In this document: one piece after another, positions 14,755 through 14,806 of the stretch
Layout: the number at the start of each line of letters is the position of its first letter
Numbering within the stretch: the stretch's first letter is position 1
Origin: a virus
Taxonomy: Duplodnaviria; Heunggongvirae; Uroviricota; Caudoviricetes
IMG/VR virus record: IMGVR_UViG_2880378312_000006
Direction: 5' to 3' (one strand)
Length of the DNA stretch: 64,000 bases
Notes under the pieces: generated by a model
Told to the model about the DNA's origin: nothing
The model's input: the letters and a program-made list of their open reading frames with translations, nothing else
The model's database searches: none
Program-made: the position numbers and the translations under genes

Positions 14755-14806
14755 TCTGCAAAACCTCTGCAAAACCCCTCTGCAAAACTGGTCATCAAAT
14801 GACCAG
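14755..14806. repeat. Three direct repeats of TCTGCAAAAC followed by an 8-bp-arm palindrome (ctggtcat caa atgaccag) overlapping the int stop codon; candidate Int-binding or att-arm sequence
   Basis: Read directly at 14755-14788 and 14788-14806. Confidence 0.6.

Follow-up and report, generated by a model that had tools for sequence, protein, structure and literature searches.

Predicted P′ arm-type integrase sites and an adjoining terminator-like hairpin in a complete attP next to an ompW-type phage integrase gene

In the 64-kb stretch of phage DNA analyzed here (hereafter the window), an integrase gene ends against three exact direct copies of a decamer, TCTGCAAAAC, which run straight into a palindrome, and this arrangement raises the question of what the repeats and the palindrome do. 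The original prediction saw in them attL arm-type binding sites and/or a bidirectional terminator insulating int. Its description of the layout was confirmed, except for the length of the palindrome arms. The three decamers start 11 and 13 bp apart, and positions 14755-14812 read TCTGCAAAAC-c-TCTGCAAAAC-ccc-TCTGCAAAAC-TGGTCAT-caa-ATGACCAG-TTTTTT. The int stop codon (minus-strand TGA, 14795-14797) does lie in the palindrome, where it takes up two bases of the loop and the final base of the left arm, and the palindrome leads into the six T at 14807-14812. On comparative sequence evidence, we read the TCTGCAAAAC triple with good confidence as the P′ arm-type sites of a lambda-like integrase (Int) and the adjoining hairpin as a separate, terminator-like element. 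The features on which this reading draws are collected in Table 1.

Table 1. Features of the predicted attachment site and its neighboring genes (positions in the window)
Feature	Position	Strand	Basis or remark
P-arm arm-type site, P1-like (predicted), CCTGCAAAAC	14502-14511	+	oriented like the triple; centered 137.5 bp to the left of the core center
IHF-consensus match, AATCAATCAGTTA	14530-14542	+	exact match to WATCAANNNNTTR; predicted site, consensus match only
Common core, CAGTGTGGTACATGGATATCGATACCAC	14631-14658	+	28 bp identical in attP, attB, attL and attR
Phage-borne ompW 3′ end	14631-14751	+	stop TAA at 14747-49; equals the 121-bp PPompW att, 'attB-in-PP_3'
P′1 arm-type site (predicted), TCTGCAAAAC	14755-14764	+	copy closest to the core; +115 from the core center
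P′2 arm-type site (predicted), TCTGCAAAAC	14766-14775	+	+126 from the core center
P′3 arm-type site (predicted), TCTGCAAAAC	14779-14788	+	+139; last 5 nt form the base of the left hairpin arm
Hairpin and T-run, putative bidirectional intrinsic terminator	14784-14812		between convergent ompW′ and int; fold and conservation
int, tyrosine integrase with N-terminal lambda-type arm DNA-binding domain	14795-15925	-	ORF and Pfam
xis, excisionase	15903-16151	-	overlaps the int start; PF07825, 31.9 bits; RefSeq annotation

The Pfam search placed PF09003 (Arm-DNA-bind_1) at residues 2-71 of Int with 77.7 bits (cutoff 22) and scored the catalytic domain, PF00589, at 58.3 bits. Int is 99.5% identical to PPompW IntE, 50% identical to phage 21 Int (M61865) and 36% identical to lambda Int. 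The int region matches E. coli O157:H7 chromosomes at 100%, and hundreds of E. coli genomes have int and ompW in a tail-to-tail arrangement. By these similarities, Int is a lambda-like, ompW-targeting integrase of the PPompW type.

Crossover core and type of junction

To map the core, we set the window against an empty ompW site (CREC-544), left junctions of single lysogens (attL; 95JB1 and PPompW_132418), right junctions (attR; O157:H7 NE122, PPompW_132418, E2348/69 and P-EibA) and the contiguous attP in the phage 204576 genome record, in sequence alignments. The sole block common to all four types of site is CAGTGTGGTACATGGATATCGATACCAC, which contains the inverted hexamers GTGGTA and TACCAC, and the crossover is therefore placed inside it. 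The original prediction had suggested the comparison with an empty chromosomal site as a check, and this comparison is among those that located the core. It had also expected the attachment core or arm sites immediately 3′ of int; the arm sites are indeed predicted there, but the core lies approximately 100 bp to the left of the triple, with the phage-borne ompW 3′ end in between.

To the right of the core, the window and the left junctions carry a diverged ompW 3′ end, whereas in the right junctions and the empty sites the native end is present, with the native GC-rich terminator behind it. The diverged end (14659-14749) is 84% identical to the native one and keeps both reading frame and stop codon. 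It replaces the native end in lysogens, which are annotated with a full-length ompW, and the 121-bp stretch is annotated as a duplication in LC567822. To the left of 14631 there is no ompW; the sequence there is a phage P arm, identical to the right end (attR) of PPompW_132418. Since the left flank is a P arm, the junction is P-O-P′, that is, a complete attP and not a plain attL. A simple attL (B-O-P′) reading is thus ruled out, and the earlier proposal of attL arm-type sites survives in its arm-type part only.

A second check that had been proposed, a search for the same repeat or a shared core near the right junction (62550-62716), found nothing. A 24-nt core searched across the 64-kb window with up to 3 mismatches occurs a single time, and the only repeat-like match near the right end, with 1 mismatch (62405-14), falls within a ydfK-like gene and is no more than chance would give (9 matches against 5.8 expected). 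The right end of the window (62343-64000) comprises this ydfK-like gene and then a 5′-truncated ydfJ, which encodes an MFS transporter; the attachment locus at this end is Qin/PPydfJ and not ompW. The right window end is the ydfJ/ydfK junction of a different attachment system.

PPompW prophages share with the window a nearly identical Int and the same 121-bp att. In describing them, Nakamura et al. (2021, PLoS Pathog; PMC8112680) took the whole 121-bp similar stretch as att, confirmed attP by sequencing excised circles, and regarded the 121 bp beside int as a possible attB, 'attB-in-PP_3'; the word 'arm' occurs 0 times in their article, and arm sites are not mentioned in it. Here the crossover is narrowed from those 121 bp to 28 bp, flanked by both arms. 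No description of the arm motif or of the 28-bp core was found in the searchable literature.

The repeats and their predicted role as arm-type sites

The triple begins 6 bp past the stop codon of the phage-carried ompW 3′ end, and no other 40-bp stretch of the window holds a 9-mer three times. Its 9-mer, CTGCAAAAC, is unrelated to the core (GTGGTA...TACCAC). Together with the single P1-like copy, the motif forms a pattern of three sites in the P′ arm (+115 to +140) and one in the distal P arm (-137), with the same orientation throughout.

The P1-like copy coincides with a boundary. Three divergent P arms (those of the window, the phage 204576 attP and the P-EibA attR) are approximately 80% alike from the core outward, and their similarity ends directly to the left of (T/C)CTGCAAAAC. 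The repeat copies thus appear to mark the outer limits of the functional attP, which we predict to extend over approximately 290 bp (~14498-14790). Within the P arm, the IHF-consensus site is identical in P-EibA and reads AATCAGACAGTTA in phage 204576. A second conserved P-arm copy was sought on either strand with up to 2 mismatches and was not found; an equivalent of the excision-specific P2 site is, as far as the arm can be read, missing or degenerate. The best candidate in a search of the P′ arm for the IHF consensus had 2 mismatches, so that this arm holds no good site to explain a bend. The octamer TGGTCATC occurs at 14465-14472, approximately 30 bp left of the P1-like site, as well as in the hairpin arm (14789-14796); its left copy lies outside the region conserved among P arms and is probably there by chance.

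Conservation of the P′ arm was examined in eight distinct sequences from E. coli, Kluyvera, Raoultella, Enterobacter and an Enterobacteriaceae bacterium, whose Ints are 64-100% identical. Only 2 of 27 motif columns vary, against 14 of 21 columns in spacers and flank (Fisher p = 2.5e-5, a value that is indicative only, given that the sequences are related). Counted by cells, the figures are 2/216 for the motif and 38/161 for spacers and flank. The 9-mer is nearly invariant even in relatives whose Int is 64-68% identical, while the spacers differ in sequence, and the spacing of 13 and 11 bp is the same in all eight arms.

Two of these relatives, Kluyvera georgiana (L014) and Enterobacter bugandensis (L018), carry a 1.5-kb two-gene insert that parts int from the hairpin and repeats, and the repeats still lie beside ompW′. 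In a third (L017, Enterobacteriaceae MGYG-HGUT-00110), the neighboring gene is not ompW and the triple is still present. Because of the insert in the former and the different neighbor in the latter, the repeats can be said to go with the att arm and not with the 3′ end of int or with ompW. The two inserted genes, which encode 306 and 96 aa on the opposite strand, lie between the int stop and the hairpin and repeats (L014 3690-4897; same position in L018), and the insert apparently falls within the last int codons. Neither of the two L014 genes has a Pfam or PADLOC match, and they may be a moron or unrecognized defense cargo. At the L017 locus (3611-3900), an Int with 64% identity is accompanied by the same triple, a wobble-paired hairpin and another host gene with its own GC-rich terminator; from this layout, the arm sites are apparently the same, while the core or target differs.

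We scanned IMG/VR viral contigs for the pattern CTGCAAAAC-N2-CTGCAAAAC-N4-CTGCAAAAC and found it at 41 loci, all 41 of which have an Int homologue (48-100% identical) beside it. The distance from the end of the homologue to the triple is 10-39 bp, with one case of 1510 bp. The same three-repeat layout also occurs with other motif tails next to Int relatives at about 44-52% identity, namely in phage 21, Kp4865-4 and 813R8. Kp4865-4 has GTTTTGATAA three times (spacing 13 and 11) plus one copy at the opposite end of the record, and 813R8, which adjoins potC, has GTTTTGGRGA three times (spacing 13 and 11). The motifs of these three and of the window have GTTTTG in common and differ in their tails. 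The identity of the Int N-terminal domain to that of the window follows the motif as a trend only: most Ints next to a CTGCAAAAC triple reach 61-69% and the other Ints 43-60%, each group with one exception; L049 (49%) has CTGCAAAAC and Kp4865-4 (60%) does not. A shared GTTTTG half with a variable tail may be a simple, readable code for arm-site specificity across Int subfamilies, and the four natural tails (CAGAG, GGGAA, ATAAC and GAGAG) offer material for the study of how arm-binding sites are chosen in the lambda family.

The 3 + 1 distribution, the footprint-like conservation, the association with Int at 41/41 loci and the recurrence of the layout with other motifs strongly support the arm-type site reading that had been put forward originally. 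The mechanism we propose is that the N-terminal domain of an Int protomer would bind each copy of CTGCAAAAC and that the C-terminal domains of the same protomer would act at the core, which would be reached by bending the intervening stretch of approximately 100 bp that encodes the replacement ompW 3′ end. In the other arm, the single copy would play the part of lambda P1, and IHF, binding at its predicted site, would bend the DNA. The arm sites would be required for recombination, and the carried ompW end would keep ompW intact in lysogens.

Other proteins could in principle occupy the repeats. The presence of a xis gene (PF07825) and the frequent binding of directionality factors to direct repeats suggest Xis, or else Fis or an IHF-like architectural protein of the host, as the ligand instead of Int. 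Lambda Xis sites are confined to the P arm, between P2 and the core, whereas the window motif occurs in both arms, three times in P′ beside int and once at the outer P boundary, which is the pattern of Int arm sites. Moreover, the motif tail changes with the Int subfamily, and the motif is unlike the IHF consensus. We therefore regard recognition by Xis or a host protein as improbable.

An RNA-level function has a lower probability again, and we consider it very improbable. The repeats do lie in the 3′ untranslated region of both convergent genes, and their reverse complement, GUUUUGCAG, supplies the U-tract of the int-sense hairpin, so they could act as a 3′-UTR element of int or ompW, for instance as a protein or sRNA site or as part of a terminator. 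In L014 and L018, however, the repeats are 1.5 kb from int with opposite-strand genes in between, and in L017 they occur without ompW. The fourth copy, in the P arm, is far from either gene, and next to Ints that are 48-57% identical the triple occurs with no hairpin; a role at the DNA level is the only one that fits all of these contexts. Finally, although short tandem duplications arise easily and the spacers are short, there is next to no chance that the triple is a functionless slippage product that came to lie beside int by accident, given that only 0.005 such triples are expected per window (mean of 200 shuffles), that the 9-mer is kept across genera at 64-68% Int identity while its spacers diverge, and that the Int association is complete and the same architecture recurs with other motifs in four Int subfamilies and in lambda.

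The adjoining hairpin

The original prediction was right about the palindrome but gave it arms of 8 bp; the perfect inverted repeat has 12 bp per arm (AAAACTGGTCAT at 14784-14795 and ATGACCAGTTTT at 14799-14810), with a 3-nt CAA loop. The left arm takes in the final 5 nt of the third repeat, and four of the six T in the T-run belong to the extended stem. The hairpin folds with -14.4 kcal/mol on the plus strand (z = -5.5) and with -14.9 kcal/mol on the minus strand (z = -5.2), and on each strand 0 of 200 shuffles folded as well. On the plus strand, which is the ompW-sense strand, a stem of 8-12 bp is followed by six T. On the int-sense strand, the U-tract is only UUUU, inside or after the stem, and is followed by G. 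Among the eight homologues, 95.8% of cells are paired, against at most 48% when the partner is slid.

The covariation at the hairpin was not significant: we found one double-sided change and four wobble-changed pairs, and 213 of 500 shuffles did as well. A simple promoter and terminator scan gave nothing above shuffle expectation and did not flag the hairpin. The scan likely missed it because the longest stem (12 bp) leaves 4 T in the 8-nt tail window, and the miss reflects how the scan rule works and does not speak against a terminator. An Rfam search at the hairpin returned only a spurious NRON match below threshold. The earlier suggestion of a bidirectional terminator insulating int is thus backed by the stable fold and the T-run, and not by covariation or the terminator scan.

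The distribution of the hairpin differs from that of the repeats. It is present only in the clade whose Ints are 64-100% identical; Ints that are 48-57% identical have the same triple and no hairpin, which is thus not shared by the module at large. Its place in L014 and L018 is beside the repeats and ompW′, away from int. The L017 hairpin pairs only in the int sense, with three G.U pairs, and those of L027 and L047 show wobble pairs in the opposite sense. In phage 21 and Kp4865-4, the repeats are flanked on the opposite side by GC-rich hairpins unrelated to that of the window, which again lie between int and the target-gene end. Because of the wobble pairing, the limitation to one clade, the linkage in L014 and L018, and the hairpins of phage 21 and Kp4865-4, we favor a terminator between convergent genes over a fixed element of the intasome. 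From its fold and T-run, the hairpin is probably a Rho-independent terminator that can be used in both directions, a plausible reading that is less well supported than that of the repeats as arm-type sites. In lysogens, such a hairpin would take over from the native terminator and stop ompW transcription past the 3′ end that the phage supplies; int transcripts would be terminated or stabilized by it.

A perfect 12-bp inverted repeat could also be a DNA site for a dimeric protein, either a regulator or a component of the intasome. Variation is found in the center and hardly any in the outer 9 bp of each arm, which fits two half-sites, and in L014 and L018 the palindrome stays with the repeats and not with int. 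But the L017 sequence preserves its pairing through one double change, from C-G to U-A, and three G.U wobbles that break the DNA symmetry, and wobble pairs occur on the other strand in L027 and L047. Flanks of the A4/T6 kind are a usual mark of bidirectional terminators, and the hairpins on the opposite side of the repeats in phage 21 and Kp4865-4 fit a terminator, not a fixed position in an intasome. A protein-binding palindrome therefore seems unlikely, and we retain the RNA hairpin, with termination as its probable function.

Lambda integrates between genes and has no terminator between int and core, its tI/sib lying beyond attP. We also considered a retroregulator of the lambda sib/tI type and rejected it: the window hairpin is on the int side of the core and stays linked to int in phage and prophage.

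Related attachment sites and the prophage cluster

The closest system is the phage 21/e14 attP in icd, of which the window site is the ompW-targeting counterpart. Phage 21 likewise carries a replacement 3′ end of its target gene between the core and the P′ arm. Directly after its int stop it has GTTTTGGGGAA three times, at 2108, 2121 and 2133 (spacing 13 and 12), with one same-orientation copy beyond core and icd′ at 2493 and, as in the window, no second P-arm copy. A hairpin lies between int and the target-gene end in both phages, on the icd′ side of the repeats in phage 21 and on the int side in the window, where it contains the int stop codon. Further differences are the target (icd versus ompW), the motif tail (GGGAA versus CAGAG) and the length of the carried gene end, which is about 165-209 bp in phage 21 and about 120 bp in the window, with its shorter predicted attP of approximately 290 bp. 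On its layout, the window site is an attP of the phage 21 type, one that restores the 3′ end of the interrupted host gene.

In work by Wang et al. (1997, J Bacteriol), the minimal phage 21 attP is said to be 366-418 bp long and to have to include the outermost repeated dodecamers. These dodecamers were reportedly proposed as arm sites, with the arm sites determining 21-versus-e14 specificity. The outermost repeats span approximately 395 bp in M61865, which agrees with that length. The feature table of M61865 places an icd pseudogene at 537-700, whereas the icd-like sequence is really found downstream of int, on the minus strand at 2211-2375; the icd coordinates in that table look as if they had been counted from the other end of the record.

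Lambda Int is heterobivalent, as expected of the window Int, and has the same PF09003 N-domain. The lambda P′1-3 sites are arranged in tandem at 27786, 27796 and 27807, about one helical turn apart like the window triple, and P′3 (27807-15) overlaps the int stop (27812-14), which the window triple abuts. Lambda P1 has the orientation of the P′ sites and lies at -137 from the core center, compared with 137.5 bp in the window. By contrast, the motifs differ (C/AAGTCACTAT in lambda versus CTGCAAAAC), as do the Ints (see above), and no inverted P2-like copy was found in the window. P2 is a mark of lambda's particular layout and does not define arm-type sites as a class. The P′ sites are at +59 to +80 in lambda and at +115 to +140 in the window, approximately 56 bp further from the core, because the window attP carries a gene end. 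The architecture of the attP is that of the textbook, and it is not a new kind of system.

The arrangement around the int-bearing prophage matches a previously described one. In O157:H7, the ydfJ and mlrA prophage clusters carry 21-bp, 96-bp and 121-bp sequences in that order (PMC8112680). The window has the 21-bp attB-in-PP_1 as an exact match at 14303-23 and two 79%-identical copies of the 96-bp attB-in-PP_2 (14011-14118 and 62265-62372), which bracket the int-bearing prophage. As judged from these elements and its right end, the window is the ydfJ prophage-cluster arrangement of section 10 of that article. In this cluster, 'attB-in-PP_3' is, by our reading of both arms, the prophage's own complete attP, P-O-P′, with a P1-like site, an IHF consensus, the core and P′1-3. 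No core-like sequence was found in the 96-bp repeats, and the int-bearing prophage may have been inserted by homologous recombination or by another integrase. FRIK944 matches the window at 100% over 1.4 kb, in the left part only, and ends at btsS/mlrA, not ydfJ.

That the intact attP inside the cluster is active and contributes to O157:H7 genome rearrangements is possible, though we consider it rather doubtful. An active attP would mean that the phage had reached the cluster otherwise than through its own Int/att reaction. After induction, Int could then recombine this attP with the ompW attB or with the attL or attR of the resident ompW prophage, and such recombination would cause the large inversions and deletions and the shuffling of prophages that are typical of O157:H7 genomes. 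About 44% of complete E. coli genomes are reported to contain prophages of the PPompW type, which in EHEC and EPEC carry type III effector loci (PMC8112680). The 28-bp crossover yields a testable minimal attP, the predicted stretch of approximately 290 bp with three P′ sites and one P arm site, and the narrowed attP helps to predict which prophage-in-prophage junctions are competent for recombination.

Two further pairs of repeats were observed in the window, 1-300 with 58809-59108 (99% identical) and 1295-1711 with 60104-60521 (77-85%). They represent tail-fiber and nleG-region sequences of the left prophage that recur near the right end of the int-bearing prophage, and as long direct repeats they could support homologous recombination between the two prophages. 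In two E. coli loci (L002 and L003, 1652-1741), a RefSeq-annotated YkgJ-family pseudogene fragment lies between yciC and ompW, just upstream of the native ompW. The 96-bp attB-in-PP_2 has been described as ykgJ-ecpE-like (PMC8112680), and a link between this fragment and attB-in-PP_2 is possible.
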